A DNA stretch of 64,000 bases, from positions 37,545 to 101,544 of IMG/VR virus record IMGVR_UViG_3300026097_000015; one strand, 5' to 3'. This DNA comes from a virus. The notes below the pieces were generated by a model that saw only the letters and a program-made list of their open reading frames with translations, searched no databases and was not told the origin of the DNA. The position numbers and the translations under genes are program-made. Each line of letters begins with the position of its first letter. The first letter of the stretch is position 1. Below, in pieces: positions 19,838-49,556 of the stretch.

Positions 19838-20392
19838 ATGTATGAAATATCAATGCCAAGGTTTGAGGCAATCGTAATAAAAGATCTCATTTCAACAGCA
19901 ACAAACATTTTAGAGTATGGTTCTGGCGGTACAACTTATTACGCTTATCAAAATAATAAAACAGTAACTACAGTTGAAACAGACAAAAACTATTTAAATA
20001 ATCTTTTAGATACATGCAATCATTCAGATCTGATTAAGCCTATCCATGTAGACGTGGGGGAAACGACTGACTGGGGGTACTCTTTGGGATTGCCAGAAGG
20101 CTTCAACACAATCAGGCAATACATAAGAGTACCATGGGACATAGATGATTTTAATCTTGTCATTGTTGACGGTAGGTTTAGGGCAGCAACATTTATGTAT
20201 AGCTGGAACATGGCCAAGCCAGGGACTACCTTCTTCTGGGACGACTTCGTAAACAGAAACCACTACAAAGAAGTGCTACAGCATATTAACCCTGATGCAT
20301 ATGTTGGCAGGGCAGCTATATTCGTAAAAGAAGATAATTACTTTAAGTTCAGCGACGAAATGATTCATAAATACGTTAGTGATCAGCGTTAA
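19838..20392 (+). CDS. Class I SAM-dependent methyltransferase-like protein (glycan O-methyltransferase type)
   Basis: ILEYGSGGTT, TVETD, LVIVDGRFR, FWDD. Confidence 0.7.
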   Translation: MYEISMPRFEAIVIKDLISTATNILEYGSGGTTYYAYQNNKTVTTVETDKNYLNNLLDTCNHSDLIKPIHVDVGETTDWGYSLGLPEGFNTIRQYIRVPWDIDDFNLVIVDGRFRAATFMYSWNMAKPGTTFFWDDFVNRNHYKEVLQHINPDAYVGRAAIFVKEDNYFKFSDEMIHKYVSDQR

Positions 20393-20424
20393 AGCGAAGC
20401 GATAAAGTTCGGCGGTAAATAGAG
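20392..20424 (+). repeat. Left arm of 34-bp imperfect inverted repeat (partner 36085-36118)
   Basis: AAGCGAAGCGATAAAGTTCGGCGGT-AAATAGAG; 28/34 identical to the reverse complement of the partner. Confidence 0.7.
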
Positions 20425-20443
20425 TGCAATACAATCGAAACGA

Positions 20444-20472
20444 TTGACAAACTCTAATATCAGATGTATAAT
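20444..20472 (+). promoter_or_regulatory. Consensus SigA promoter
   Basis: TTGACA-N17-TATAAT. Confidence 0.85.
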
Positions 20473-20477
20473 ATATT

Positions 20478-20550
20478 CAGCATAGGCAATAGCTGAGCTA
20501 GAGGCCCTAGGGGAGTTTCGGACGAAGCTCTTCTAGGGTTCTCGTTATTT
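20478..20550 (+). ncRNA. Candidate two-hairpin small RNA or leader
   Basis: TCAGC/GCTGA hairpin, then ~18-bp stem with five G-U pairs. Confidence 0.45.
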
Positions 20551-20570
20551 AGATTTAGAAACGGTATAAA

Positions 20571-20765
20571 ATGGAAACAGCAATAACCACAGATGTAGAC
20601 ACAACAGTCTTCTATACAAAAGAAGATGTACAAGGATGGACTGTAGTAAAGAAATGTACAGAATGTAAGTTTGCAGTTTTCACTGGCAAGTCACAAGATG
20701 TAGATAAGTCTACTAAAACTATCAATGATATATTTGATAAAGGTCACAACTGCATAATTTTTTGA
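20571..20765 (+). CDS. Hypothetical protein (CxxC...HxC)
   Basis: ORF track. Confidence 0.55.
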   Translation: METAITTDVDTTVFYTKEDVQGWTVVKKCTECKFAVFTGKSQDVDKSTKTINDIFDKGHNCIIF

Positions 20766-21090
20766 GGGTCTACAACATAAGCATAGACAAATTCATACTC
20801 AATTGATGTATAGCAAGAATACCTATAAGAACACCAACTAATCTAAACCAAAAAAGAAATACGGGATTGGCCCTAATCTTTTCTTCTAGGTTTATATAGG
20901 AATATAGAAAACCTAAGATCAAACCTAATAGTGCAAATTCTGTCATATTCTAGTGTAACACACATAAATCTTTTGAAGGCTACGCCTTTATACCAAGATG
21001 ATTTGTTACCCTCGCAGAATTGATTCTATGGCTTCTGAGAGCTATTTTATAGCCATCGTAATGAAATAATATCTTACTGATTATAAAGCT

Positions 21091-21130
21091 ATGTGGAGGG
21101 AAGTGGAGTTATGTGGAGATATATGGATAA
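21091..21130 (+). repeat. Four 10-bp phased units (aTGTGGAG-like)
   Basis: atgtggaggg aagtggagtt atgtggagat atatggataa in AT-rich non-coding DNA. Confidence 0.6.
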
Positions 21131-21738
21131 TGGAACACATAGTTATAAAACCGTAATCAAAATTTTATATCTCCATAGCCCCATATCCTATATAATGCTA
21201 AAACAGTCTGGGATTTCAAAAGCTTCATCGTAATGTCTTTTTGGGAGATAGTGTTTATATATAGGGGGATAATTACCAAGATAGGTAAATTTTATACCCT
21301 CAAAAAATATAAATAAATCTAATAAAATAAACAAAAATAAATAAAAATAGATCAAAATGTTTTAAAAATAAAGAAAATGTTTTATTCTCTTATAGGGGGT
21401 ATTAACGTATAATGGTTAACCAATATATGATATACATACCTAGTGTAAGTACTATACCTTCCAGCATTTTATACCCTCCTTCGTAATAAATAATAAATTA
21501 ATTAATAATGCCTACGGCATCTGTTATAAAATTTGGGGTATACCAACAGATAACCCATTAAGTGTTAATATACCTATACATATAATACATATACTAGATT
21601 AAGATCATATACCCTGGATGTTACATACATGTTAAATAGTTTTATTATAGATATACTAAAACAACCAGCGATTTCAAAAGGTCCATCGTAATACTTTTTA
21701 AACTAAATAGTTTTTAATATAGGTCATGCTCGATGCAT

Positions 21739-21814
21739 AAAAAAAAGAAGCTGGATAGCTAGTTCATAGCCACATCGCAATGACGTTAGCTAGCTTGCAC
21801 CTATCCAACTTCTA
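21739..21814 (-). ncRNA. Candidate small RNA with own promoter and terminator
   Basis: TTGACA-N17-TATAAT at 21849-21821; stem AGAAGTTGGATAG/CTATCCAGCTTCT followed by a T-tract. Confidence 0.6.
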
Positions 21815-21992
21815 TACATAATTATATCCTATATAGCCCAGGATGTCAAGTTGATCATCGTAATACCCTCAAAACAACCCACGATTTTATATGATCCATC
21901 GTAAAGGTTTTTATATATGGGATATGGTAACATTTTGATAACTTTGGGTCGATCACAGAATACCCCCTTTTGTCAAGGGGGTATAAACTTTA

Positions 21993-22271
21993 CTAGTCTG
22001 TGTCAGTGATATCTAGATACTTGTTGTGAAGATTGAGAATACCTGATAACTCGTTATCTGTTAGAGAGTCTAATGTCATTTTCTCTAGGGCAATAAAAAA
22101 GCATAGGCTAGTGTATAGGTTGTTCTCATAGAGAAATGTCCTATACACATCTGGCGTATAAACAACTTCCTCGTCACCCCAAAACTGTTCTTCAAGGTCA
22201 AGTGTAAATCTGTTTAGAGTGTCTGCTATATCGTATAACTCGGACATTTCTTCTTCGGTGTATTTTGTCAT
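21993..22271 (-). CDS. Hypothetical acidic protein (leaderless start MTKY)
   Basis: ATG 7 nt after the -10 of an AAATGTCC promoter. Confidence 0.65.
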   Translation of the reverse strand: MTKYTEEEMSELYDIADTLNRFTLDLEEQFWGDEEVVYTPDVYRTFLYENNLYTSLCFFIALEKMTLDSLTDNELSGILNLHNKYLDITDTD

Positions 22272-22301
22272 ATCTAAAACCCTATCATATCCTATGGACA
22301 T

Positions 22302-22586
22302 TTATTCCATACTCCTAGCTAGTAGGTCATCAAGCACATCATACCCTTCATCCTCTAGACCTAATGCAGCCAACAGCAGGTCAAAGGTTTCATCAATAAA
22401 GGTATTTGCTTCTTTGTTTCCTGAAACAATCTTTTCACTTAGTAAATATGCAAGGGGTAGCCCTAAGTCATTGTATTCAATAAAGTCTGAAAAATCAGCG
22501 TCTGCCCGATAATTCATCCATAGGTCTGCTAGGATGCCGCACTTGTCATTGAAAGTCGTCTGTCCTGTATTGTCTGAACCGCTCAT
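22302..22586 (-). CDS. Hypothetical protein
   Basis: ILADLW...DFIEYNDLGLPLAY. Confidence 0.7.
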   Translation of the reverse strand: MSGSDNTGQTTFNDKCGILADLWMNYRADADFSDFIEYNDLGLPLAYLLSEKIVSGNKEANTFIDETFDLLLAALGLEDEGYDVLDDLLARSME

Positions 22587-22791
22587 CTATATCATCACTC
22601 AATTCTTCTCTTGCTGTTTCTTGGTTTGTCTTTGCGTAGTAGGCACTATCCGCTATTTCCTGTAACCTGTTGTAGTTTATAGTTGGCTTATGCCTAGCTA
22701 TATAAACTCCTACTTGGTCTAGGTCTAATCGCAAATCAGAAAGCATATCAGCCATTTTGCCTGCTACCTGTTCTTCTCTGCTTTTTCTCAT
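22546..22791 (-). CDS. Hypothetical protein
   Basis: GGAGG SD; LSDLRLDLDQVG. Confidence 0.7.
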   Translation of the reverse strand: MRKSREEQVAGKMADMLSDLRLDLDQVGVYIARHKPTINYNRLQEIADSAYYAKTNQETAREELSDDIDERFRQYRTDDFQ

Positions 22792-22815
22792 ATACCTCCG
22801 TATTCTATTATCTCA

Positions 22816-22866
22816 TAAAAAGGTGATGGGGGCAAGGGGAAAGTAGGAATACCCTCAACCCCACCA
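22816..22866 (-). terminator. Intrinsic terminator with loop UAUUCCUACUUUC
   Basis: 15-bp GC-rich stem plus T-tract just after the stop at 22870. Confidence 0.75.
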
Positions 22867-22869
22867 ACT

Positions 22870-23301
22870 CTAATAGACCATTCTGGGGTCTAAATCTTCA
22901 ATGTACTTGGGAAGCGTCTCTAGGAATTCTAGTATCCTAAGTGACAAACGGTCTTTATAATTTGCCATGAACGTATCTAAATCAATAAAGCCATCTAGTC
23001 CAAAGTCAAGCCAACCGTCCATGCTTATTTGTTCTAACATACTGTGGTTCTTGGGGTCCTGTGTTTTCTTTGCCCAGTCAACTAGGCCAATTGCCTCAGC
23101 TTCCTTTGTAAGAAGAGTAATTGTATAATCAGTATCCATTATAGGAAGAGGTGACTGTTGCCATACACGTGCATTAATCATCCACAGGTCCTGGTCCCAG
23201 AATGTATCCTCACCATACCATTGCTCAGGACACCATACATTAAGGTCCCAGTCAATCTTTGTTTTAGTTTTGTTCTTGTTACGAATCATTGTTGCTGTCA
23301 T
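22870..23301 (-). CDS. Hypothetical protein
   Basis: ATG overlapping the upstream stop, GGAGGG SD. Confidence 0.65.
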   Translation of the reverse strand: MTATMIRNKNKTKTKIDWDLNVWCPEQWYGEDTFWDQDLWMINARVWQQSPLPIMDTDYTITLLTKEAEAIGLVDWAKKTQDPKNHSMLEQISMDGWLDFGLDGFIDLDTFMANYKDRLSLRILEFLETLPKYIEDLDPRMVY

Positions 23302-23489
23302 TTCTTTCCCTCCAAGGTAGGCTCTTCTTCTTCTGGTAGCCAGAAAACTTCTTCTGTCCATCCCCACTTCACTATGCCATCTATATATACAGCATCATAT
23401 GCTTTGGCCTTAGCTTCTTCGGGGGAGTCTGCTTCAACCTCAGTCATCCCCCACTCAATACGTTTTACATATACTTCATATGTACTCAT
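23298..23489 (-). CDS. Small protein with VEADSxEEA motif
   Basis: AAGGAG SD. Confidence 0.7.
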   Translation of the reverse strand: MSTYEVYVKRIEWGMTEVEADSPEEAKAKAYDAVYIDGIVKWGWTEEVFWLPEEEEPTLEGKK

Positions 23490-23640
23490 GATGTCTCCTT
23501 TGCATATTCAAGCAACAACCTGATGTGATGCACTATTTGTTCTGGGGATAGGTCTTCTCTCTCAATGTATTCGTATACACGGTCAAGCACCTCTCCATCT
23601 GTCGTTTCGCTATTCATTGTAAAAATATCTGCGTAATTCA

Positions 23641-24087
23641 TTATGCATTCTCCTCTGCATATAGTTTTGCTTCAGGGTCTTCTGGTGATACAGGTCGCAA
23701 CCCATACCCCTCACAATCTGAACAGTCAGGGTCACCTTCGTCATTGCTTTCATCAAAGCAGTGGCACTCAATGTCTAATGACAATACCACAACCTCGCTA
23801 GAATCTTTCCACGGTATCTCACAGACATAGTAACCTAGTCTATCTACAATACCAATACCTGGAACCAATAGCAAGGACATCTCTCCCTGAACCATTGTCC
23901 AAACATAGTGGTTGTCTTTAGATAAGACATAGTCTAATTCTTCACCATAGGTTTCAAACATTAGTTCATTGCCTGTAACAAGGTGGTTCTCTTGTGGCTT
24001 GAACCGCTCTTCCCATTCGCTCTGAGTCATCTCATATGCATCTAGATTGATGACATCGTCCATATCCCAATTGCCATTGTCATTCAT
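23641..24087 (-). CDS. Hypothetical protein with FETYGEE motif and C-terminal Cys cluster
   Basis: GAAAGTAGG SD. Confidence 0.75.
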   Translation of the reverse strand: MNDNGNWDMDDVINLDAYEMTQSEWEERFKPQENHLVTGNELMFETYGEELDYVLSKDNHYVWTMVQGEMSLLLVPGIGIVDRLGYYVCEIPWKDSSEVVVLSLDIECHCFDESNDEGDPDCSDCEGYGLRPVSPEDPEAKLYAEENA

Positions 24088-24203
24088 TATTTACCTACTT
24101 TCTTCTTTACATACTTCACAATGATAGTTATCTGTTTGGGGGTAGTAGTCTAACACTCTATCCTCCATACAGCAATCACAAACATCTAATATCATACCCA
24201 CTC

Positions 24204-24734
24204 CTAGTGATGAAAGTCTACAGGAACAATGTACCAGTTGTCAACACCAGCCTCAATGCTTTCACGAACAACTGAGGGGTAAGTTATCTCATTGATGATA
24301 TCAAAGAAAAAACTGTGATAGTTCCAGCTAGCTCCTGCTATGTTTGCTAATTTAGTTAGGGGGTATAAAGCAATACTAGAATGGTAATCAGGATACAATC
24401 CTTCTTTATTATTCTCTATATTATCTAATATCTGAGGTAAGTCTATCTCCCTAGATTGGTCTAATGCTCGTCCCAGCTCTGCTAAGTGATACTCATGAGC
24501 CTTGATTAGATACTCATGAAACTTGGGGTCGTCTTGATGTGCTACATCACCAACATACTTACTGTCGTAAGGCTTATCACTACTACTCCAGCGTCCACCA
24601 CCTGTAACAAACCAGTCATACCATGTATTGATGATTTCACTGTCGCCCATTTGCATATTGAGAAATGCTTCAACATCTCCATGTGCCTCCTCTGCACTGT
24701 CAGCCTGTGTGGCTACATATTGAATTACGTGCAT
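24204..24734 (-). CDS. Hypothetical protein (WYDWFVTGGGRW, VPVDFH motifs)
   Basis: GAAAGTAGG SD. Confidence 0.75.
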   Translation of the reverse strand: MHVIQYVATQADSAEEAHGDVEAFLNMQMGDSEIINTWYDWFVTGGGRWSSSDKPYDSKYVGDVAHQDDPKFHEYLIKAHEYHLAELGRALDQSREIDLPQILDNIENNKEGLYPDYHSSIALYPLTKLANIAGASWNYHSFFFDIINEITYPSVVRESIEAGVDNWYIVPVDFHH

Positions 24735-24774
24735 AGATTTCCTACTTTCTATTTGTTGTCAGCCTACCAGTTAT

Positions 24775-25119
24775 TTATACGTTTGTCAAGCTGTTTGCGT
24801 ATTCTTCTACAAAATGCTCAAAGTCAAAAACGATACTGTGATATGTAACAGTATTATTAGTGAAGTCAGCTGACAAGGTGTCATAGCTTTCTTCTCCAGC
24901 CTGATAGCTGGTTAGTCCAAAACCTGTTTCACTAGTCCACTCATTACCAATCAGCTGCGAGACTACGATACGGATTGCATAGGGAACATCTCCCCAACGT
25001 GGCTCTGCTTTTTGCAGGGCATATGCAAAGTCTCTAACCTTACTATCCCCACCCCAGTGTGAGTATAGCCATACGCTACCTTTTTCATCTTTCAATTCAA
25101 AATTAGTTCTTGCTCCCAT
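24775..25119 (-). CDS. Hypothetical protein (MGAR...LYSHWGG motif)
   Basis: GAAAGTAGG SD. Confidence 0.75.
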   Translation of the reverse strand: MGARTNFELKDEKGSVWLYSHWGGDSKVRDFAYALQKAEPRWGDVPYAIRIVVSQLIGNEWTSETGFGLTSYQAGEESYDTLSADFTNNTVTYHSIVFDFEHFVEEYANSLTNV

Positions 25120-25131
25120 GATTCCTACTTT

Positions 25132-25314
25132 CTATTTGTCTTCTACATATCCTAGTGCAACTCCACAGGAATTGCAAGTCTCAGGGGTATAAAGTTCAAC
25201 AGCTCCATACCATCCATTATAGTAATCAGAGTCCTTCGCACAAAAATCTGAACAATAGTATTCATAGTCTAATACGTCACCCTGTTTATCTTCAATCAAT
25301 GCTATATGAGCCAT
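25132..25314 (-). CDS. Small zinc-finger-like protein
   Basis: YCSDFC...CNSC; first gene after a promoter. Confidence 0.7.
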   Translation of the reverse strand: MAHIALIEDKQGDVLDYEYYCSDFCAKDSDYYNGWYGAVELYTPETCNSCGVALGYVEDK

Positions 25315-25665
25315 ACCTCTACCTTTCTCTGATACTCAGAGCCTATCACATGGTATGGACATTTACAAGTAGAAGTCCAGGATTTTCCAGGATTTTTCTT
25401 AATGCTTCGTAAATGTTTATTTATCTTTATATATATATGAATAAATTTGGGGTCGATCCCAGAAAAAGAAAAAGGAGGCCGAAGCCTCCCCTTTCCCATC
25501 AACCAACCTTATTTATCCTTATACTTCTCATACTGCCTTTTACGCAATTCGTTTTGAATTTTGATATCCCTGAATGTTTCAGATGCCTTGGCAAATTGAG
25601 ATGCCCCAATCGCAAACATTATCAAAGGTGCAAATATAAATAGCAATATAATTAGAAACTCCATA

Positions 25666-25959
25666 TTACGCCTCTACCCTATCCAAAATCTCAACTTCTA
25701 GGGTAGGTCTAATATCACTAACCATATAGTCAAGAATGTCATCAACAGCTTTGTCTAGGAAGTATTCTTCCAACATAGACCTAGTTAGTTCATGACCATT
25801 AGCTAATACAGTTTTGATATGCTCATCATCATCTATGTAGTATTCTAATGCTAGGTTTACCTTTGCTACCCTTTCGGTTCTAAACATCTCCAAAAGATTC
25901 CTCCCTAATGTTGCTTGCGGTTTTGGTATCGCCATCAAGGATAGCTGATACATAGTCAT
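25666..25959 (-). CDS. Hypothetical protein (true start probably downstream)
   Basis: ORF track; overlaps upstream gene. Confidence 0.5.
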   Translation of the reverse strand: MTMYQLSLMAIPKPQATLGRNLLEMFRTERVAKVNLALEYYIDDDEHIKTVLANGHELTRSMLEEYFLDKAVDDILDYMVSDIRPTLEVEILDRVEA

Positions 25960-26230
25960 ATCTATTGTTTTCGTGCATATTTACAATATCATCCCATTGG
26001 TCAGCTGTCAAGTTATCAGGCTCAAATTGTCTGACATCCCCTTGACCATAGTCACCATCAGCGGTAACCCAAGCATTGCTTTTGATAGCAACTTCTAGCA
26101 AATGTTCGTGAGCGTCTATGATACCCTCCAGATAATTCTCGTGAGAAGCGTCTGTTGTGTTATCAAGCTCATTCTTGAAATCTCTTAGTCTGTTGTTTAT
26201 ATATTGAATCATTTGTGTGCCTCTTTCCAT
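25880..26230 (-). CDS. Hypothetical protein (start probably 26212)
   Basis: GAAAGAGG SD before MIQY. Confidence 0.65.
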   Translation of the reverse strand: MERGTQMIQYINNRLRDFKNELDNTTDASHENYLEGIIDAHEHLLEVAIKSNAWVTADGDYGQGDVRQFEPDNLTADQWDDIVNMHENNRYDYVSAILDGDTKTASNIREESFGDV

Positions 26231-26345
26231 ACATCTGTCTTTTGGACTGCCTCTTCTCCAAATACCTCTGATAGCTCTCTCAGGGCATCTTGGAATCCGT
26301 GGAAGTATCCTCTGTCATATAGTTCTTCTAGTATTTCAAGCTTAG

Positions 26346-26534
26346 TCATCTTGCGTTCACTCCATATTTCTGTGTAAGCGTTGTCTTTATTTGTTCCATC
26401 CTACCAGTTAGCACGGACACTGAATGCATACTTAGGTCTTTGATACAACTTACATCATTGTGCAAGGTTATGTATTCAAGCCTTAGACTTTTGATTGCTT
26501 CTTCTTTAGTCACAGTCAAACCCCTCTGCCTCAA
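26346..26534 (-). CDS. Hypothetical protein
   Basis: ORF track. Confidence 0.5.
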   Translation of the reverse strand: MRQRGLTVTKEEAIKSLRLEYITLHNDVSCIKDLSMHSVSVLTGRMEQIKTTLTQKYGVNAR

Positions 26535-26615
26535 AGATAGCCTCTATCTCTGTTAGTTGTTCTTCTGTCAAGTGGTCTACCTGAACGGCATCTGCAAACA
26601 TCTTTCCAAAATCCA

Positions 26616-26924
26616 TTACAATACCTCACATATACTTTCACCTTGTGCAACGAGGGAATAGAACTCATCTGACCCCTCGTCATTTGTATATACTACATCA
26701 ATAAACTTTAGATAGCAACTATTTTCGTACCAACTTCTTGCGGTATTTAGTAAGTCATATGGATTGCTATCTTTAGCTTTAATTAAATAATCATACTCAT
26801 AGTCAATCATTTGTTGGGTTTGCTTTTCATCCATCAGGATATAAACCTTGTGGCAACCCTCCCAAGCGATTGAGTCAGCTTCGTTGATTATGTTTTCCAT
26901 ACCCCACATCTCGTACTTACTCAT
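26616..26924 (-). CDS. Hypothetical protein (AWEGCHKVY, WYENSC.LKFI)
   Basis: GAGGAGG SD before MSKY. Confidence 0.7.
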   Translation of the reverse strand: MSKYEMWGMENIINEADSIAWEGCHKVYILMDEKQTQQMIDYEYDYLIKAKDSNPYDLLNTARSWYENSCYLKFIDVVYTNDEGSDEFYSLVAQGESICEVL

Positions 26925-27004
26925 CTTCTTCCTCCTCATACATGTCATAACAGCGTTTACATTCACCAAACCAAATGTCTGGTATTTGGGTTACCCCACA
27001 GGTT

Positions 27005-27211
27005 TTACAGGTAGTTAGAAGACTGCTCATCTTCTTCGTCCTTTAGCATTTCATCGTGTTCTGCATTTTGGTATGTTTCAAAACTAAATAAGTCTTCATC
27101 ACATTCAGGGCATTGAGCATAGTATCCCTCTGATACATCCTCAAAGGAAGTGGGAGCTCCACAACGAGCGTGTCTAAGCTTAGGTTCAGTCTTCATCATC
27201 ATCTGATTCAA
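27005..27211 (-). CDS. Small zinc-ribbon protein
   Basis: HARCG...CPECDEDL. Confidence 0.6.
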   Translation of the reverse strand: MNQMMMKTEPKLRHARCGAPTSFEDVSEGYYAQCPECDEDLFSFETYQNAEHDEMLKDEEDEQSSNYL

Positions 27212-27350
27212 TCTCCTCTACCTGAATGTCGTCAACACCTACATACATACAGTTCTGGTCATAGATTGCCAACTGCTCTGCTTCTTCTGCGGAATCAGCC
27301 TCAATCTCTCCAGAGAACTCTACCGTCATATTCACTATAAATCTAGCCAT
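27186..27350 (-). CDS. Small protein with IEADSAEEA motif (missing from ORF track)
   Basis: Promoter plus GAAAGTAGG SD; MARFIVNMTVEFSGEIEADSAEEAEQLA. Confidence 0.7.
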   Translation of the reverse strand: MARFIVNMTVEFSGEIEADSAEEAEQLAIYDQNCMYVGVDDIQVEEIESDDDED

Positions 27351-27390
27351 TAGACTTCCTACTTTCTTGTTGGTTGATTGTAGCCTAGCA

Positions 27391-27747
27391 CTAAGCTAGG
27401 ACATTTTGTTCAATACCCTCTACCTGATTTTGCCATAGTGACAAGTTTGCACGGTAACGGTCATTGTAAGTACCAATAAGGTTTTCAAGTGTAATAGTAT
27501 TCTCAGAGATACAACGCTTTGCTTGTTCTAGTGTGATATCTCTTGAAAGATATGTAAACCCATTGTCTAGCATTACATTAGACTTATTCTCGTATTCATC
27601 TTCATCAAAGAACCAGCCTACACCCTCATCCATAACAAGGGCAGGGCCTCTGCCTGTGATAAGAAAAGCGGTAGGGACAAGAGTCAACTCATCATCTAAC
27701 CCTAGTTCAATCTTTACAAGCTCTGAATCTAACATTGGAAATTCCAT
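27391..27747 (-). CDS. Hypothetical protein
   Basis: Promoter plus AGGAGG SD. Confidence 0.75.
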   Translation of the reverse strand: MEFPMLDSELVKIELGLDDELTLVPTAFLITGRGPALVMDEGVGWFFDEDEYENKSNVMLDNGFTYLSRDITLEQAKRCISENTITLENLIGTYNDRYRANLSLWQNQVEGIEQNVLA

Positions 27748-27904
27748 TTATTCCTCCTTGGTTGATATGATTACACTACCATAGGGCATGGACATTTAAG
27801 TTCAAAACTCCAGGATTTCAAAATCTTCTTCGTAAAGAACAAATAATGTTTAACTAACTAAAAAGTTTGGTCGACCCCAGTATTCCAGATCAGGAATATG
27901 GGAA

Positions 27905-27932
27905 GGGCAGTTTATTCTCATGCCCAGGAGAA
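27905..27932 (-). other. 3'-UTR H-type pseudoknot, copy 1
   Basis: UUCUC-CU-GGGCA-U-GAGAA-UAAAC-UGCCC. Confidence 0.65.
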
Positions 27933-27937
27933 GTAGG

Positions 27938-28945
27938 TTATACGCCTACTGTTTCCCTAACAATCGCCATTAGACGATTCTTTTCTGCATTCACCATTGG
28001 GTCAAACCCTGATGCTGATGCATAGATTGATTCGCTGTTACCACCACGTGCTTTGCGGTACCAGTCTAGACGCTCAGTCATACCGTTCAACGCACCCCAA
28101 GCTGTTCCAGCAATGGTGTTGTTATATTCTCCAGTATAGATAGACTGTAGCATGTCAACTTTGGTTGTGTGCTTTTTGATGGACCCCTTGGAGTCTTTCT
28201 CTGGAGCAGGGTATGCCTTAGCTACAATCTGGTCAAAGGTATTCTTGCTAATCTCAGTTTCAATTAGTTTCTGAGCAAGCAATTGGAATTCGTCAATGTA
28301 GGCATTGGCTAGGCCTAGGGCTTCACGAGCTGCTTGCACCTTACCCTGAGCGGTTTGAGTGTGACGAATCTTGAATGACTGCTTGACACCTTTACGACCT
28401 TTACCAAGTACCAAGTTCAAAGTGTTAGCACAAACAACACGTACAGGAGTAACGGATGCCTGAATAGCAACTGAGCCATCGTGGCTAGTGTTTACTAGTA
28501 GATAGTTGTTGACCTTGTCAGATACGCCATTAGGGTCCAGAACCGTTTCACGCTCTAGGGCTAGTGAACCAAACACCTGACGTCCGCCCTTGATGGAGCC
28601 AGCAGTTTCCCAACGTCCTCCATCCAGCATGGCATCGCCAAATTCAAACAGGTCTTCATTCTGCAATGGAACATAACGCTCACCAACAACACCTAGGATG
28701 TCGTTCTGGCTACGGTCAAATGGGTTAGTACGTGTAACAAAGGAGTAACCCTTGTCAGATGAAAAGTTTTCGGGTACAGGAACTTCTTCCAAGCGGACGT
28801 TCCAGTCATTTAGGTTAGCAAGCTTTAGCATCTCTGCTGTAGACACTTCTTCATTGAACACTGTACCAAGCTTGTGCCAGGCAGGCTCTCTGAATGATGC
28901 AAAGGTAGCTTCGCCAGTTTCTGATAATTCTAATTCGTGGGCCAT
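27938..28945 (-). CDS. DUF932 / TIGR03299 phage-plasmid protein
   Basis: MAHELE..WHKLG, LGVVGERYVPLQN, WETAGS..GGR, NTSHDGS, TPVRVVCANTL, IRHT. Confidence 0.88.
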   Translation of the reverse strand: MAHELELSETGEATFASFREPAWHKLGTVFNEEVSTAEMLKLANLNDWNVRLEEVPVPENFSSDKGYSFVTRTNPFDRSQNDILGVVGERYVPLQNEDLFEFGDAMLDGGRWETAGSIKGGRQVFGSLALERETVLDPNGVSDKVNNYLLVNTSHDGSVAIQASVTPVRVVCANTLNLVLGKGRKGVKQSFKIRHTQTAQGKVQAAREALGLANAYIDEFQLLAQKLIETEISKNTFDQIVAKAYPAPEKDSKGSIKKHTTKVDMLQSIYTGEYNNTIAGTAWGALNGMTERLDWYRKARGGNSESIYASASGFDPMVNAEKNRLMAIVRETVGV

Positions 28946-29168
28946 GAGGTCCTTCTTTCTGCTAGGGGATGTTTACATGTATAATCTAACACAGGGGTAG
29001 GACATTTTGCAAGGTCTTCGTAAGACTTTCTTAAAGTATTTTATTACAAATTGGTAACAGCGGGTCGACCCTAGATTGATCCAAATGTCAAGGATAAAGC
29101 AAACCCCCTAGACTACACTTGGTCAGAAAAGCTTTCCATAGCTTCCCTTTTTCATCTAGGGGGTAGGC

Positions 29169-29195
29169 GGGTAGTTTAGAGAGATACCCAGCTCC
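29169..29195 (-). other. 3'-UTR H-type pseudoknot, copy 2
   Basis: GGAG-CU-GGGUA-U-CUCU-CUAAAC-UACCC. Confidence 0.65.
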
Positions 29196-29200
29196 AGTCA

Positions 29201-29650
29201 TTACAGAATTTCCATAATTGCCCCATAGGTGGAGGCACTTACTTCTTCCTGTGAAGTCATTTTGAGAATGTTTAGGTTCTTCTCAAGCAGTGACTTTCTA
29301 GTAGTGTAGTCACGACCAAAATGAGATTTCTGGTTTGGTCGCTCTGGCTCGTTTGGCTCTCTAGGAAAGTCCTCAATGTAATCAACATCAAAGGATACCT
29401 CAAACCTGTTGCCATAGTGACGGGACAAACGAATTGGGTCAGTATATTCATAGCCAATGCCGTTGCTGTTTGTCTTTAGATAGTTAGACACAAACGCAAT
29501 TACATCTTTCTTGTATTGCTCTTTCTCTGCCTCATACTGCTTACGCTTGGCAGGGTATTCAGCCTCTGCCTTTTCAATCTCAGCAATCTTGCTTTCAATC
29601 TCAGCAATTAGTTTTGCTACTGGAACTTTTACGCTAATGTTTCTTGCCAT
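29201..29650 (-). CDS. Hypothetical coiled-coil protein
   Basis: GAAAGTAGG SD. Confidence 0.8.
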   Translation of the reverse strand: MARNISVKVPVAKLIAEIESKIAEIEKAEAEYPAKRKQYEAEKEQYKKDVIAFVSNYLKTNSNGIGYEYTDPIRLSRHYGNRFEVSFDVDYIEDFPREPNEPERPNQKSHFGRDYTTRKSLLEKNLNILKMTSQEEVSASTYGAIMEIL

Positions 29651-29773
29651 TATGAAATCCTACTTTCATTATTAGTTTTGTTTTTGATTGTTAGGGGGTG
29701 AACTAGGGGAAAGCGTTCATTTCGGCTACCTCTACTATGGGCTTTCATTAAGGATAGCGAACCTAGTTCTAGT

Positions 29774-29802
29774 GGGGCAGTTTTGTGTGATACCCCAGCA
29801 CA
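29774..29802 (-). other. 3'-UTR H-type pseudoknot, copy 3
   Basis: UGUG-CU-GGGGUA-U-CACA-CAAAAC-UGCCCC. Confidence 0.65.
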
Positions 29803-29812
29803 ATAGGTTAGA

Positions 29813-29968
29813 CTACTTTTTGATAACAGTAGTCCAGCGAGGCTCGCCATTTACATCTAGGCGAACTCTGAATGTTCCATTTTTGTTGGCAACTACTTCT
29901 TGAATAGTGCCTGTAACACCACTCTTAGCGGTGGTGAACTGTGAGCCAACAGTTAGTGTGTTTTCCAT
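29813..29968 (-). CDS. Small SH3/KOW-like beta protein (51 aa, missing from ORF track)
   Basis: MENTLTVGSQFTTAKSGVTGTIQEVV...RVRLDVNGEPRWTTV; promoter plus AAGGA SD. Confidence 0.7.
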   Translation of the reverse strand: MENTLTVGSQFTTAKSGVTGTIQEVVANKNGTFRVRLDVNGEPRWTTVIKK

Positions 29969-30089
29969 TTTGCTTCCTTACACCTGCTCTACGACAGGAT
30001 TTGTTTCTGGTTTATCTTGTAGTCGTTTTTGCTACAAGAGTTATCTTAGCACAGGCTATGGACATTTATCAAGCCTGTTTAGTAACAAA

Positions 30090-30353
30090 TTAGTAACGCT
30101 CTATAAACGCTTCTAAGTTGTATGCGTCAATTATTTCTAGGACAGTAGCATAGCCTCTGCCTCTAAAAGATACGCCATCAGGCAAGCCAATTTTGCTTTC
30201 CTCGTCATAGGCGTTGCAAAGTTCAATAGCTCTCTTTATACTATCAAACATCATATCTGGAATTGGGGGGTAGGAATTTGCTTTCATATGCCACTGAATA
30301 GCATTGTCAATATCTGTATGCTCCAACATATCTACTGCTGATAGGTATCCCAT
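30090..30353 (-). CDS. Hypothetical protein (WHxxxNxYPP motif)
   Basis: Own promoter and SD. Confidence 0.75.
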   Translation of the reverse strand: MGYLSAVDMLEHTDIDNAIQWHMKANSYPPIPDMMFDSIKRAIELCNAYDEESKIGLPDGVSFRGRGYATVLEIIDAYNLEAFIERY

Positions 30354-30404
30354 TACTTCCCGCTTTCGTTTGTTGTGATTAGCTTAGCATATGGTATGGA
30401 CATT

Positions 30405-30563
30405 TTAGGCTTCTTCTGCCTCGCCAATATACCATTCGCCTTCTTCGCCATCATTGATTAGATTAGCTCTGCTTAGATATTTATTGGCTTTGGCATATGC
30501 CTCTTCCTCGTTGTTTGCTAAAATGCTAACGAATCCGTCATAGTTGATGGTATATCTAGTCAT
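30405..30563 (-). CDS. Small protein with ANNEEEA motif (missing from ORF track)
   Basis: Own promoter plus GAAAGTAGG SD. Confidence 0.7.
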   Translation of the reverse strand: MTRYTINYDGFVSILANNEEEAYAKANKYLSRANLINDGEEGEWYIGEAEEA

Positions 30564-30607
30564 TACTCCTACTTTCTTTTTTGTAGCCTATCATATGGGG
30601 TGGACAT

Positions 30608-30802
30608 TTATAGAAACTCAAAAGGGTCTCTATCTTGAAAAATTTCTTCCCACGCCTCTAGGTTATAGTTTTGTGGATTCTGATAGTATTCGCCAAGTGC
30701 TTCTTTGATTTCTTCTGCTTGCTCATCCATCATTTCTACTTTCTCTAATAGCCTTATTATTGTTAGACTGCCTTGTGCCTTTATACTTCTTGGGAGTTTC
30801 AA
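30608..30802 (-). CDS. Small acidic protein (true start probably at MMDEQ)
   Basis: GAAAAGTAG SD before the internal ATG. Confidence 0.5.
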   Translation of the reverse strand: MKLPRSIKAQGSLTIIRLLEKVEMMDEQAEEIKEALGEYYQNPQNYNLEAWEEIFQDRDPFEFL

Positions 30803-31021
30803 CCTTATGCTTGGCTTTCAACATATTATGGAATAGCTCTTTGGCTTCCGCTTTTCTTCTAGCTTCGTTTCGCTTGCCTAGCATTTGGTTTCTCCCTTCT
30901 TGTTTATACTGTTACCCTATCACACCCTATGGACATTTATGAGGGCATCCAAGCAAAATCTTCTAACATTATTTCTGCCATATATATTGTTTCTTCTAAT
31001 TCTATTTCATCCATTGCTGAC

Positions 31022-31294
31022 TCATAAGACATTTATTGCCTCTTGCCTCTCGTTATCCCAAATTGCTATTTGGTTGTGCAGCTTAGCAAAAGATAAAGCC
31101 TTTGTCAAGTCAGCGAATAAAATTGACTTATCATAATAGGTTTTATTTGTCTTAGGGTCAGTCCATACTCCTAAATATTCACCTTCCCCAATTTCTTGAG
31201 GGGTAGTTTCCTCAAAAGCAACCCAATACCCTTTACTAGTCTGAACAGGAAAAAACCCTGCCTCTGCGTCTGCTTTATATGTTCCATCTCTCAT
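31022..31294 (-). CDS. Hypothetical protein (LGVWTD...YYD.S, A..FA...NQIAIWD)
   Basis: Leaderless start after an AAATGTCC promoter. Confidence 0.75.
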   Translation of the reverse strand: MRDGTYKADAEAGFFPVQTSKGYWVAFEETTPQEIGEGEYLGVWTDPKTNKTYYDKSILFADLTKALSFAKLHNQIAIWDNERQEAINVL

Positions 31295-31566
31295 AGGTAT
31301 AACCTATCACATACCTAGGACATTTTGCAAGATTTTTCCACGATTTCGTAAAACGTTTCGTAAAAGATATACATGGGCCGATATGGATCGACCCCCACAT
31401 TCCAGATCTGGCATAGACAGCCCCTCCCTAAAAGGGAGGAGTGTCACCAGGGCTATACATCTTCAGCCTATCATTCTCATCTTGGAGTTTTAGATTCCAA
31501 AAAGCTAATACCATAGTTGTGAAGCTCATTATGCCAAGGGCAATAAAGGCAAACATCAAAAGGTTC

Positions 31567-31752
31567 TCAAGCATCTACATTCTCCTCTGCGAATACTGCT
31601 TTCCAAAAGCGTGACTTGTCAAAGCGTGGGTTATCTTTCAACATCATATCCTGAAAGTCCATAACCATAAACGCCGCTTTTTCGTGGGGTAGCTCACTCT
31701 TGTATTGTCTCAAAATACTAGCTACTTCAATATAGTCTTTTCTTGTCATCAT
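31567..31752 (-). CDS. Small protein (MTRKDY...DNPRFD..RF motif)
   Basis: Coupled ORF; motif familiar from phage early genes. Confidence 0.75.
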   Translation of the reverse strand: MMTRKDYIEVASILRQYKSELPHEKAAFMVMDFQDMMLKDNPRFDKSRFWKAVFAEENVDA

Positions 31753-32039
31753 TAGATTAGTTCCTGTTCTTTAGCTTCGGTTGTATCCATCATTCCATCA
31801 TATTCAAAACACTCAGGGCATACAGTGGTTCCCTTTGGGTAGTATCCATAGCAATATACGCATACAGCCCCGTTCTCCTCATCTTCCCTGATTTTCTCAA
31901 GGGCTTCAAAATAAAACCTGCTTAGGGTTTCATCAGGAACGTGAGCATAGAGCTTGCCTAGTAGGTGATGAATACCCATATTCCCATAGGCTTCCTCATA
32001 GATTTTACGAGCCTCGGTTACTGTTGGAATTGTTGACAT
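31752..32039 (-). CDS. Hypothetical zinc-ribbon protein
   Basis: CVYC...CPEC; own promoter. Confidence 0.7.
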   Translation of the reverse strand: MSTIPTVTEARKIYEEAYGNMGIHHLLGKLYAHVPDETLSRFYFEALEKIREDEENGAVCVYCYGYYPKGTTVCPECFEYDGMMDTTEAKEQELI

Positions 32040-32092
32040 ATTAGTTTTCCTTTCTTGTTTATATAGTTAGACTAGCATAGGGGGTGGACATT

Positions 32093-32242
32093 TTAGTCCG
32101 ATAAAATCCAGTTCATATAGTCCATTGGTGACAGACTTTCCAGGTAGCACTTACGGCAAGCTGGATTAGAGCCAATAACTCTCATTGAAGCAATAGAGAC
32201 GCTGACACGGCAGACTGAGCAAGAGGTGTAGTGTTTGGTCAT
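32093..32242 (-). CDS. Small zinc-finger protein
   Basis: CSVC...CRKC; AGAAAGG SD. Confidence 0.65.
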   Translation of the reverse strand: MTKHYTSCSVCRVSVSIASMRVIGSNPACRKCYLESLSPMDYMNWILSD

Positions 32243-32399
32243 TAGTTGGCCTTTCTTGGTTGATGGCTTTAGCCTAACACAGGGGTAGGACATTTATCCA
32301 GGATTTCGTAAACCACTTCGTAAATAAAATGTAACGGTTTGATAACAGCGGGTCGACCACAGAACCTCACCCCTGTCAAGGGGTGGGGCTGCTAAGGGG

Positions 32400-32648
32400 C
32401 TATGCCCTAATCTCGTCTAGGATTTGCTGGATAGCCTTCTCCCTAGGGGTGTAGAAAGGGACCTCACTTTTGCCATCTGCTGACCAGATGACCTCCTCAG
32501 TGTCATCTTGAACAATGAACTTGGGGTCCTCGTTGAAGTGGCGGAACACGTTGATAATCTCAGTGGTAAGCTCGTTGCCATCAAAGGTCCTGGTGTCAAT
32601 GGTGTCGCCATATAGGTCCAAAGCTCTAAAAGTGTAATCGTTGTTCAT
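32400..32648 (-). CDS. Hypothetical protein
   Basis: Own promoter, GGAGG SD. Confidence 0.75.
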   Translation of the reverse strand: MNNDYTFRALDLYGDTIDTRTFDGNELTTEIINVFRHFNEDPKFIVQDDTEEVIWSADGKSEVPFYTPREKAIQQILDEIRA

Positions 32649-32814
32649 AGGTTTTCCCTCCGTTGGTTGACAGCTTCAGCTTAGCATATACCCTGGACAT
32701 TTATCCACGATTTCATAAACTTCTTCGTAAATTGTTTGTTGTGATCCAAATGTTATATTCGGGAGTCGATGCATATTCCAGGGAGGGAATACAAGCCCCC
32801 TCCCCAAGAATACA

Positions 32815-33333
32815 TCAGTAGGCAGAACCCCTGAACACTATCCAGATAAGGGCTTGAGCTACTCTAGGTGTTAGACCGTGTTCATTGCCTGCTTCGGTTA
32901 CGGCGTTAGCCATCTGAGCATACTGAGACTGAGTAGGTGTTTTACCTTCTATGCCTAATGCTCTCATCATCCAAACATCTATCACAACCGCATTAGCGTC
33001 ACCAGCAATAGCTTTAGCAAAGGCATTAGTCTTCAATCCCTTGAGGGCGTCAAACCCTAGCTCTAGGGAGTTGTTAGCCATTCGCAAGTTGTTACCTAGA
33101 CCCCTGACCTCTTTGCCTAGTGAGAATGCGATAGACTTCTCAACGTTAGTTGACCAACGCTCTCTAGGTGAGAATGAGGAGACTACGCTTGCCCCAACTT
33201 CCAGGGTAGTGTCTAGGTTGTCTGCCACCTTGTTAGCAATCTTCTCAGCGTCAAGATACCAAGTAGCTGCTTGCTCCACTTGACCAAGGGTAGCCCTAGC
33301 AATTATCTCTGAGTAAGTTTCTTTATAGTTCAT
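32815..33333 (-). CDS. Helical protein resembling the HhH DNA-glycosylase superfamily (tentative)
   Basis: WY...SP...W..N, GLKT..F, VVIDVWM.R, QALIW. Confidence 0.5.
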   Translation of the reverse strand: MNYKETYSEIIARATLGQVEQAATWYLDAEKIANKVADNLDTTLEVGASVVSSFSPRERWSTNVEKSIAFSLGKEVRGLGNNLRMANNSLELGFDALKGLKTNAFAKAIAGDANAVVIDVWMMRALGIEGKTPTQSQYAQMANAVTEAGNEHGLTPRVAQALIWIVFRGSAY

Positions 33334-33482
33334 TAGTTGACCTTTCTTATTTATACAATCTAACATATGCTATGGACATTTATCGTAAAAAGTCCACGAT
33401 TTTTTCCACGATTTCTTAATTATCATCGTAACGTTTTATGATCGTTGCCACCGACTTTTGATAGTCTGAAGTCGGTAGCCAG

Positions 33483-33515
33483 TTATCCACAGGCTGTGTA
33501 TAACCTTGTGGATAA
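33483..33515. promoter_or_regulatory. Three DnaA boxes
   Basis: TTATCCACA (33483), TGTGTATAA (33495), TGTGGATAA (33507). Confidence 0.75.
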
Positions 33516-33523
33516 CTAGGTAG

Positions 33524-33637
33524 CTACTTGATGAGTAGCCAAAAGGAATAGGCAAGTATTCCAAACATTCCAAATACCAAAACAACATCTGGCAAACCTG
33601 GAATTATGTATTGAGCGTTTTCTGGAATGATGGTCAT
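33524..33637 (-). CDS. 37-aa membrane peptide (missing from ORF track)
   Basis: Promoter variant plus GAAAGTAGG SD; single TM helix. Confidence 0.55.
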   Translation of the reverse strand: MTIIPENAQYIIPGLPDVVLVFGMFGILAYSFWLLIK

Positions 33638-34374
33638 TAGTGATACCTACTTTCTACTTGATACAAGAACACTATCACAACCCCTAGACATTATGGCAGA
33701 CACGCCCGCAAAAAAAAATAAAAAAAGTTTATTTATTTTAGTAAAAATGCCGTTAAATGTCCTACCCCTATGCTAGTATCTAAGTATAGATAAAAGAAAG
33801 GAGTTCAAATGATGAACTTACTAATTGGAAATGATTACGGATACTGCGAGATTTGTGATAACCACACGCCTCGCACAACAGCAGAAGGTGAAATCTGCTG
33901 TGAGTATTGCTGGGATGCTTATGGTGAAATAAACTAAGCGTTACCATTCCGTTATAAAAATCGGGAATAAAAATAACTAAAAATTTGTTGTACTAAGTAA
34001 GAACTAAAAAAGAAAGTAGGTATAAATATGAAATTCAATTTCAGTTGTAGAATTTGCGGTTTAGGATACAGCCAAGTATCTGAAACTGGCTATAAAGCTA
34101 ATTGCCAATGTAGGCGTGTTAGCTAAATAAATGTCCAGGGTATGTGTTAGTATCTAATTAGAAATAGAAAGTAGGAATTATGACAATCGCATTCATCAAG
34201 ACTTCAGACAAGACAGTAACTCACTACGCCTCTTTTGACGCTGAAACGCCAATTGAAGCTAAGAAGATTACTGATTACTATTGGGCAGAAGTTCGCAAGG
34301 GTAACATCTATGGTTTCTCAGTTATCTGAGAATTCCATAACACGAATAGCTAATAAATAGAAAGTAGGAAATAT

Positions 34375-34629
34375 ATGAGAAAAATTGAGTTCAAAGTTAC
34401 TGAGAATGGTTGGATTACTAGCAACGCTGAGCGAGCTAGGTCAATACCAGCCTCAAGAACTGAATGTAAAAAGTGTGGCTATGTTCTAAAAGCTATACTT
34501 CCATCAGACTTATGGAATAGATACTGGAAAGAAAATCACAATTGCCAAAGTAGGCAAGCTAGCCGTCAGGCATTTGACGGTATGCTAGGTAGCCCTATGG
34601 ATACCCTAGCTAACCTAAGTATTCGCTAA
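34375..34629 (+). CDS. Hypothetical protein (CxxC...HxC)
   Basis: GAAAGTAGG SD; followed by a terminator. Confidence 0.7.
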   Translation: MRKIEFKVTENGWITSNAERARSIPASRTECKKCGYVLKAILPSDLWNRYWKENHNCQSRQASRQAFDGMLGSPMDTLANLSIR

Positions 34630-34633
34630 TAGG

Positions 34634-34662
34634 AATGCCACCCACTAGGGTGGCATTTTTTT
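34634..34662 (+). terminator. Intrinsic terminator
   Basis: AATGCCACCC-acta-GGGTGGCATT plus T-tract. Confidence 0.85.
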
Positions 34663-34917
34663 AGCGGTATGGCGTACGGGTAACTAGTAAAAACAAATAG
34701 ACTTTGGGCATACGGGTTAGGCGGTATATTCCAAAAAGATGCCACTATGCCATAGGGTCATCATAAACATATATCAGACCTGGCATACGTGCTCACTGAT
34801 TTTTTCTTTTTATATTCTATATTTAGTGCATCATACACGATCAAACATTTCTGTAATTATGTCAAAACTGTATCTGAATTTTTTATAGTATCTGAAATTT
34901 TATGTTAAAATAGTTTT

Positions 34918-35445
34918 ATGAAATATTGCACAAAATGTGAAGTCACAAAAGAATATTCAGAGTTTCATAAATTATCAAAGTCTCCTGATGGATATAAAAC
35001 ATATTGTAAAAATTGTGTGAAAGAATATGACACAAAAAGATATGATGAAAATCGGGTATATCCTAAAAAACAACAAGACGGACTAATCCATTGTCGTAAA
35101 TGTGAGAAATATCTAGATAAGTCAAAATTTTGGGGTCACTTGTCATACTGTAGAGAATGTTCTAAGTTAGTCGGACACTCGCACAATATTAAAAAATTTG
35201 GGCTTTCTATAGAAGACTACATAGATCTTGAAAAGTCGCAAAACGGTCTATGTGCTATCTGTAATAATCCAGAAACTAAGAAAAGACGATTGTCAGTAGA
35301 TCATGACCATTCTTGTTGCTCAGGAGCATATTCGTGTGGCAAATGCATTAGAGGTCTTTTATGTTCAGGGTGCAACACTTTTCTTGGTAATGCAAAAGAC
35401 GACATTAATATTTTGCAATCTGCAATAGCTTACTTACAAAAATAA
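34918..35445 (+). CDS. Endonuclease VII-type HNH nuclease with N-terminal zinc fingers
   Basis: QNGLCAIC...LSVDHDH..IRGLLCSGCNTFLG. Confidence 0.88.
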   Translation: MKYCTKCEVTKEYSEFHKLSKSPDGYKTYCKNCVKEYDTKRYDENRVYPKKQQDGLIHCRKCEKYLDKSKFWGHLSYCRECSKLVGHSHNIKKFGLSIEDYIDLEKSQNGLCAICNNPETKKRRLSVDHDHSCCSGAYSCGKCIRGLLCSGCNTFLGNAKDDINILQSAIAYLQK

Positions 35446-35505
35446 TTTTTCAGATCAGCAAGATATATAGCTGAACATCATTTTCAATAGTGATTTATGG
35501 GCAAT

Positions 35506-35679
35506 TTAGGTATTATCACTTTGCAATGCTACAGAATCTAGCAAGGTAACTTCTCTATCACTAATAAATCCACCTTTTTCATCTAATTTTGCTCTAGCCT
35601 CTTCTTCGCTGGTAGCTAGAACTTGCAAAACCATACTTACTTGGTATGTATATGCATGTGTAGTTGGTTTTTCTGACAT
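35506..35679 (-). CDS. Small protein with LATSEEEA motif
   Basis: AGGAGA SD before MSEK. Confidence 0.65.
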   Translation of the reverse strand: MSEKPTTHAYTYQVSMVLQVLATSEEEARAKLDEKGGFISDREVTLLDSVALQSDNT

Positions 35680-36084
35680 GTCTCTCCTTATGTTAGCAAA
35701 TAGCATACTACAAAACCAAGAAATAAGCAAATTCGGATCCTGAATTGCTTGTCTTAATAAATTTTCGAGGGAATAACAAGATTTCTCTTGGTTCGTGTAT
35801 AAAAACTATTAATTACATAGTATCACACGTACACTAATAAAGCAAATACATTCTTTGGGAAATATCCAGATATCTTTCTTGGTCATATACTGTAACAAAA
35901 ACGTTATATATTTGTTATTAAATTGTTATTTTTATGTGCTATTATGCAAAAGCCGATATCTATTTGTAAATATTTACAATTATATATGAATAAACTGTAA
36001 TATCTTACAATTTGCTATATTTACATCTATTGCACATGTTAACCAAGATTGTTAGGTTGTTATTGTGCATATGTGTAGGGGGAT

Positions 36085-36118
36085 CTCTATATCACCGACG
36101 AACTTTACCGCCTTGCTT
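36085..36118 (-). repeat. Right arm of 34-bp imperfect inverted repeat (partner 20392-20424)
   Basis: Reverse complement reads AAGCAAGGCGGTAAAGTTCGTCGGTGATATAGAG. Confidence 0.7.
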
Positions 36119-36192
36119 AAAAGTGTACTTTATCTCGAAACTTTACCCCGCCAAAAGGCCTTAATTTAATAAATTTTAATATAATTATATAT

Positions 36193-36483
36193 ATGACTTT
36201 TACTGAGTGGTTGCAAACCTATGTCCCGATTATTTTAGGTATTCTCTCAATTTTGGGAATCGTATTTGGCTTTATTAGACACATATCCAAGAAAGCTGAA
36301 GGCTTCGTTAAAAATGAAGTACAAGAAGTTATCAAAGAGCTTCGACCAAATGGTGGAGGAAGTTTACGTGATCAAGTAAATCGCTTAGAGGCTTCTCATT
36401 CAAAATTAGAAGAAGGTCATGAAAAGCTCGATAGCAAAGTAGACACTTTAATAAATTTTATTATTAATAAAGATAATAAGTAA
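36193..36483 (+). CDS. Single-TM coiled-coil protein (PNGG.SLRD motif)
   Basis: N-terminal TM helix; ELRPNGGGSLRDQVNRLE. Confidence 0.7.
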   Translation: MTFTEWLQTYVPIILGILSILGIVFGFIRHISKKAEGFVKNEVQEVIKELRPNGGGSLRDQVNRLEASHSKLEEGHEKLDSKVDTLINFIINKDNK

Positions 36484-36745
36484 TATATATAGTATATTAA
36501 TATATAAGATATATATAAGTATATTCAATAAACTCTATAAGAGTTAATATGAATAATATATATAATAATCAATCAACCCTTTTATATAGTACAGCATTTC
36601 TTGGTCTTGTCAAGTACTTTTTTGATAACGTTTTTATAACTTTAATATATATAAGTATTTTTTCTTGGTTAATAAAACTTGTTAATATAACATCAATTTA
36701 TCGTAAAGTCAATATTCGTTACAATTCTGTGATAAAATTGTATAC

Positions 36746-36810: not shown

Positions 36811-36827
36811 AATGGTATAATTTTTAC

Positions 36828-49545: not shown

Positions 49546-49556
49546 CTGGGGGAATA

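Follow-up and report, generated by a model that had tools for sequence, protein, structure and literature searches.

Inverted box–hairpin–promoter modules bracket an early-gene block in an uncultivated phage clade and are candidate borders of a long terminal repeat

The long terminal repeats of K-like (Twort-like) Staphylococcus phages are set off from the non-redundant DNA by 12-bp inverted repeats (TAAGTACCTGGG and its complement; PMC7596081, PMC6022877, PMC4111496), and the left terminal repeat of phage T5 has untranslated repeat regions in which DnaA boxes and inverted repeats accompany an injection stop signal (bioRxiv 10.1101/866236). Here, we describe a pair of inverted elements in the last 64 kb (hereafter, the window) of the 101,544-bp IMG/VR record IMGVR_UViG_3300026097_000015 (linear, 93% complete). 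Two sites, site A (20392–20424, + strand) and site B (36085–36118, − strand), lie on either side of a block of small early genes, and each is the upstream box of one of two homologous modules of ~100 bp in which the box is followed by a short spacer, a hairpin, and an inward promoter. Both modules face the block, with the boxes outermost. We tentatively favor the view that they are end-formation signals at the borders of a long direct terminal repeat.

The resemblance to the K-like phages is one of layout: in both cases, a large virulent phage carries two inverted copies around a block of several kilobases (7.6–8.5 kb for the K-like type), and here, too, there are exactly two copies per non-redundant genome. 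Sequence and lineage are unrelated, however, and the K-like 12-mer is not shared, so that the K-like repeats are an analogue and not a homologue; moreover, the candidate border element described here is a box of 21–34 nt with tandem half-sites that sits inside a box–hairpin–promoter module. Like T5, the locus has conserved non-coding repeats and inverted repeats around the first-expressed early block, and DnaA boxes occur within the block of relatives, but there is no sequence relation, and the T5 elements lie inside the repeat, where their proposed role is to stop injection. A third likeness is to the PeSL cassettes of T4-type phages, which also join a stem-loop to a host-type early promoter beside variable small early genes. 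PeSLs occur in many direct copies between genes, with the stem-loop serving as a terminator, whereas the modules here form two inverted copies with a unique GC-rich box, a stem that lies over the −35 element, and no T tract after the stem. The arrangement as a whole is thus an analogue of the K-like border repeats and of the elements in the T5 repeat region; what is new here is the uncultivated clade, the unrelated sequence, and the composite box–hairpin–promoter design.

An earlier note on this DNA had reported sites A and B as 34-bp inverted sites, with a partial extra copy at 36139–36152, and had described both as GC-rich islands in AT-rich spacers. All of these features are present. In a local alignment, 20389–20424 and the reverse complement of 36085–36121 are identical at 30 of 37 positions with one gap, and the ungapped match of site A with the reverse complement of site B is 23/28. 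The extra copy, a partial box half-site, lies on the − strand, and G+C content is 45–47% in the two sites vs 31–32% in their spacers. What the note missed is that each site, real as it is, forms part of a larger box–hairpin–promoter module. The box itself contains a tandem pair of CGGCGGTAAA-like half-sites at a distance of 13 nt, and further copies occur on the B side; in site A, a degenerate second half-site precedes the conserved 21-nt core at 20404–20424. The first base of site A is the last base of the stop codon (20390–20392) of a + strand open reading frame (ORF; 19838–20392), and site B falls within the gene-free stretch ahead of the first virion-module gene (36193). Eight second-order Markov simulations of the window yielded 0–3 inverted pairs matching at 23/28 or better (mean 1.1), compared with 10–11 in the real window, a number that includes several functional repeats of other kinds. 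Because about one pair of such quality is expected per simulated window, the A/B pair is only marginally significant when taken alone.

It is the uniqueness of the box, together with its conservation, that provides the decisive evidence that the site pair is real. A fuzzy search of the 101,544-bp record with the 21-nt core, AAAGTTCGGCGGTAAATAGAG, found two places only, sites A and B, and an nhmmer search with a box profile again returned these two alone; the motif is thus not scattered over the genome, a prospect that the earlier note had raised. Relatives were found through the DUF932 protein of the block, which led to 32 IMG/VR loci, ~28 of them at 69–75% identity. The note had also proposed to look for conservation, and in ~25 IMG/VR relatives the box pair is indeed kept at both positions, in inverted orientation and 14–17 kb apart. 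Nearly all loci of sufficient reach carry a box copy 8–10 kb upstream of the DUF932 gene, on its strand, and a second copy 5–8.5 kb downstream, on the opposite strand. The flanking spacer DNA of the relatives is unalignable, leaving the 21-nt core as the sole conserved island there, and 13 box columns are invariant across 20 sequences. Three relatives rated complete contain exactly one exact A-type core per genome, and in a 92.8-kb assembly that is circularly closed, the two inverted boxes are 16.6 kb apart.

An exact scan found the A core in more than 119 IMG/VR contigs, and no cultured phage was found to have the border module. When 596 Gb of bacterial genomes were scanned for the core, 117 matches were obtained vs ~140 calculated for chance, and these fall in coding genes, such as trpB. 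As the bacterial matches are close to the chance number and lie in coding genes, the core is neither a host regulatory word nor a prophage element in the genomes sampled. An enrichment of the core in Nostoc was traced to a conserved trpB codon string, and two ~132-kb Nostoc contigs proved unrelated. Searches with the 184-aa and 220-aa proteins found no close relatives of the genes adjoining each site.

The left, or A-type, module follows a strict design. A perfect 6-bp palindrome with a 3-nt loop (20432–20446, + strand) starts 7 nt after the box in the window, and a perfect palindrome of 6–7 bp with a 2–4-nt loop is found 6–7 nt past the box in all 20 of the A-type modules compared. The hairpin leads directly into the promoter P_A (20444–20472, + strand), a TTGACA-17-TATAAT sequence that matches the sigma-70 consensus at 12/12 positions, would fire rightward into the block, and lies at a fixed distance from the box across relatives. 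In the window, the 3′ arm of the hairpin takes in the first three bases of the −35 hexamer, and in two relatives the −35 hexamer is instead contained in the 5′ arm and loop. The arms covary, in that the inner stem positions vary among relatives yet stay complementary: 91% of cells are paired, with 34 cells changed on both sides, a level reached in none of 500 shuffles, and slid controls are only 21–34% paired.

In most relatives, an ATG follows ~7 nt past the −10 of P_A, implying that mRNAs from this promoter would be leaderless, and the first gene differs among relatives. In the window, a terminator-like hairpin with a T tract (20503–20550, + strand) lies just downstream of P_A; its stem, at 20503–20540, has 17 pairs and a folding energy of −34 kcal/mol (z = −4.8). 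With so stable a hairpin following P_A at once (20479–20552), this phage may make an RNA of ~70 nt, or the hairpin may act as an attenuator before a 64-aa ORF (20571–20765).

Several other identities for the parts of the module were considered and set aside. The border-module hairpin is ruled out as an intrinsic terminator, as its stems are only 6–7 bp and a T tract is found on neither strand. The idea of a virion RNA polymerase acting on an N4-type hairpin promoter was rejected because the consensus promoter and a leaderless ATG 7 nt past the −10 explain the start, and a giant polymerase gene was not seen. A sigma-28-like reading of the tandem half-sites was dropped because the spacing, judged by eye, is unfit. 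An Rfam scan of 20000–36400 returned nothing at the gathering score and one chance-level miRNA match. We also observed a second promoter with a 12/12 consensus match on the minus strand at 21849–21821, with neither a box nor an ORF behind it, which converges on P_A over an AT-rich, gene-free kilobase.

The right, or B-type, module is a looser version of the same plan. In relatives, it comprises 1–3 box copies, a 15–28-nt spacer, and a covarying hairpin of 5–7 bp, followed by an extended −10 promoter directed into the block. The window version of the hairpin (36031–36069, − strand) has its arms at 36031–36036 and 36064–36069 around a 27-nt insert, and a leftward promoter with a candidate −10 at 36002–36007 is predicted next to it on the side of the block. 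Just downstream of this predicted promoter, at 35964–35979, we observed a perfect 16-bp AT-rich palindrome that is operator-like. The outer side of the B boxes also carries a promoter: in ~10 phages (the window and nine others), a −10 hexamer is followed 7–10 nt later by an ATG. In the window, this outward promoter and the first gene of the virion module span 36180–36483 (+ strand), with the −10 at 36180–36185, no recognizable −35, and the start at 36193. The product is a conserved 96-aa membrane-like protein with a leaderless start.

Between the boxes, the block consists of the AT-rich, gene-free kilobase, ~13 kb of leftward small genes, and two rightward genes. The leftward early genes (20770–33947, − strand), among them the DUF932 gene (27938–28945, − strand), each stand behind a repeated phage-specific promoter cassette; the endonuclease VII gene (34918–35445, + strand), near the right border, is one of the two rightward genes. 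Both flanks run rightward, with small genes and a tRNA-Met on the left and the virion module on the right.

Among cultured phages, Streptomyces phages of the Stanwilliamsviridae come closest. No cultured relative at the nucleotide level was found, and the likeness lies in the terminase, portal, protease, and capsid module, which is homologous (45–53% identity). The large terminase is 50–53% identical over its full length, the portal ~45%, and the DUF932 protein ~55%. As in the Stanwilliamsviridae, the large terminase gene (35061–36845 in G000; 17061–18845 in L041) is far from the portal gene, in the replication module, where we observed it beside ribonucleotide reductase.

In Samisti12-type records, the DUF932 homologue occurs twice, inside an exact direct terminal repeat of 10,666 bp. 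That repeat contains a non-coding stretch, 20 leftward small genes, and one rightward HNH gene, and its borders fall in two gaps that match the positions of sites A and B. The locus in the window thus resembles these phages (Boydwoodruffvirinae) both in its leftward small genes accompanied by a rightward HNH-type nuclease gene and in the placement of the block, which has rightward small genes on one side and the virion module on the other, although the Samisti12 HNH gene and the endonuclease VII gene here, which occupy the same position, have no detectable homology. This synteny with the Samisti12 repeat makes a long terminal repeat over ~20.4–36.1 kb of the window plausible, and the terminase homology also favors one.

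That the modules are end-formation signals at the borders of such a repeat is the reading we rate highest, as a substantial possibility that we put forward tentatively; it and a role in transcription, weighed below, are not exclusive. The earlier note had read the sites as symmetric terminase or nicking signals that define a ~15-kb terminal repeat, a view to which our data lend partial and indirect support. Under this reading, the block between the boxes (~20425–36084) would be carried on packaged DNA as a long direct terminal repeat, with the boxes at the ends of the non-redundant part, where the packaging enzyme, or a nuclease associated with it, would recognize them. By cutting the concatemer at each box, on opposite strands, the enzyme would define and duplicate the repeat, and both borders would then need symmetrical treatment, which would account for the mirror symmetry of the boxes. 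As a by-product, a host-type promoter would read inward at each end of the injected DNA. We favor this reading because there are two copies per genome, they are placed in the predicted border gaps, conservation is high, and the tandem half-sites are unequal between the two sides. Tandem GC-rich half-sites in an AT-rich spacer, with unequal copy numbers on each side, are typical of terminase-binding sites, such as lambda cosB and SPP1 pac.

A number of observations weigh against this interpretation. The A-type hairpin stands 6–7 nt past the box in 20/20 modules, with the promoter distance fixed too, and such fixed spacing points to a transcriptional unit, as a cutting signal need not have it. 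In the Stanwilliamsviridae themselves, no convincing inverted or direct motif was found at the repeat borders of Samisti12 or Faust, and the terminal repeat of Faust, a member of the same family, is 772 bp, so repeat length is not fixed in the family. Samisti12 and Faust do share a 30-nt sequence (23/30) just outside the right repeat border, as well as a conserved GC-rich word ~35–45 nt inside it, but the shared right-border sequence is absent from the genome studied here. Finally, the ends of contigs near box A show only a weak excess (5 of 120 at 47–108 nt inside the box, none outside), for which the transition from conserved to variable sequence at that point would account equally well.

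Assemblies collapse long terminal repeats into circles, and neither of the two terminal overlaps that we examined in IMG/VR records reflects physical ends. The perfect 8,517-bp terminal overlap of G004 (124.5 kb) has edges inside ORFs and no box match; it was rejected as a terminal repeat in favor of an assembler overlap and is neutral. That of G005 is a 127-bp k-mer overlap of a collapsed circle.

The strongest competitor to end formation holds that the modules are purely transcriptional control units whose position at the borders reflects operon layout, with the genome ends lying elsewhere. The box would then bind a host or phage regulator, or act as a roadblock, and the −35 hairpin would tune two host-type immediate-early promoters that read inward from the borders. 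This explanation has much in its favor: the hairpin is invariably found 6–7 nt past box A with its 3′ arm over the −35, both boxes are oriented alike at about −60 to −85 from the inward promoter, P_A is a perfect consensus promoter, and on the B side, an outward promoter devoid of a −35 element has the boxes either just upstream or at the place where its −35 would lie. It is harder to reconcile with the presence of just two sites per ~100 kb and with a third promoter, the perfect one at 21849–21821, that goes without a box. A position 60–85 nt upstream is also a poor one for a repressor, and no phage activator would be available at time zero unless it were injected. Bacterial genomes show no enrichment of the box and hence no sign of a host regulon, and because the gene after P_A varies among relatives, the box is not an autoregulatory operator. 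On balance, a purely transcriptional role is quite possible, if somewhat doubtful.

The two functions might also be joined. In this case, the modules would be cis sites at which a sequence- and structure-specific nuclease nicks opposite strands at the concatemer borders, generating a repeat of ~15.7 kb by strand displacement, and would serve in addition as immediate-early promoters at both injected ends. We consider this specific combination unlikely, though worth stating; to our knowledge, no element combining end formation with early transcription has been described for any phage.

A role in replication or DNA entry, with the modules acting as transcription-activated origins or as a T5-like injection-stop or membrane-anchoring region, appears improbable in our analysis. 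The layout is indeed origin-like, in that the iteron-like box, the hairpin, and the strong promoter adjoin AT-rich, gene-free DNA, and the injection-stop region of T5 is rich in repeats, inverted repeats, and DnaA boxes (bioRxiv 10.1101/866236). Exact DnaA boxes (TTATCCACA) are likewise paired inside the block of many relatives, often ~0.9–1.7 kb inside box A, with nine in 19.4 kb in one case (L015), and a single inverted pair, at 33483/33507 (33483–33515), is found in the window. These boxes lie outside the modules, however, at distances of hundreds of bases to kilobases, and two facing origins 15.7 kb apart have no obvious rationale. We also observed that the DnaA boxes of relatives occur in pairs 12–24 nt apart, with a frequency far above chance (L015, L010, L011, L021, L024, and L026–L029), and that in Samisti12 three DnaA-box-like words (L037, ~4925–5045) occur at the left border, 60–100 nt outside the repeat start.

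The earlier note had offered an invertible segment as its alternative, and sites that are unique, inverted, and placed around a gene block could indeed be recombination sites or the terminal inverted repeats of a mobile element. This is very improbable, as both flanks keep a single orientation relative to the block in ~20 relatives, and no Resolvase or Phage_integrase domain, and hence no serine or tyrosine recombinase, was found anywhere in the genome. The outer flanks differ without a target-site duplication, no relative with an empty site was seen, and there was no transposase among the ORFs scanned, with some small ORFs outside the scan. A chance similarity of two spacers, for which one might cite that a shuffled 64-kb window is expected to yield ~1 pair at 23/28 or better, is refuted by the retention of position, strand, and sequence in ~25 relatives with unalignable flanks, and its probability is negligible.

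Other features of the window were noted along the way. The promoter cassettes of the leftward genes are spread over 21800–33700 on the minus strand (e.g. at 22255–22303, 25316–25364, 30890–30938, and 32045–32093); on the sense strand, the extended −10 of each is preceded, at ~10 nt, by a AAATGTCCA-type word and, farther upstream, by TTACGAA-type boxes. Unlike host consensus promoters, this layout resembles activator-dependent middle promoters of the T4 MotA type. Within the virion module, four consecutive ORFs of 328–416 aa (46074–50564) are made of 24 copies of a ~120-nt repeat and probably encode repeat-domain fiber or propeller proteins. A sulfotransferase gene and an APS-kinase-like gene are also found inside this module (51652–53219). 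Just upstream of the portal gene lies an ORF of 1218 aa (53862–57518) with no PHROG or Pfam match, which is dissimilar to the Samisti12 gene at the same position.

In conclusion, how borders are recognized and how more than 10 kb is duplicated during packaging is unsolved for phages with long exact repeats, including T5, SPO1, and the K-like and Samisti-type phages. The clade described here offers a sharply defined pair of unique and strongly conserved candidate border elements in more than 100 uncultivated genomes, and these elements are unusual in their tandem half-sites, in a covarying hairpin that lies over the −35, and in their apparently leaderless first genes. If the genome ends lie elsewhere, the modules would represent a novel promoter architecture, with selection acting on the secondary structure of the DNA at the −35. 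If the ends do fall at the boxes, the modules would make the step of cutting and duplication tractable to study and would serve as a practical marker for predicting terminal repeats in collapsed metagenomic assemblies.

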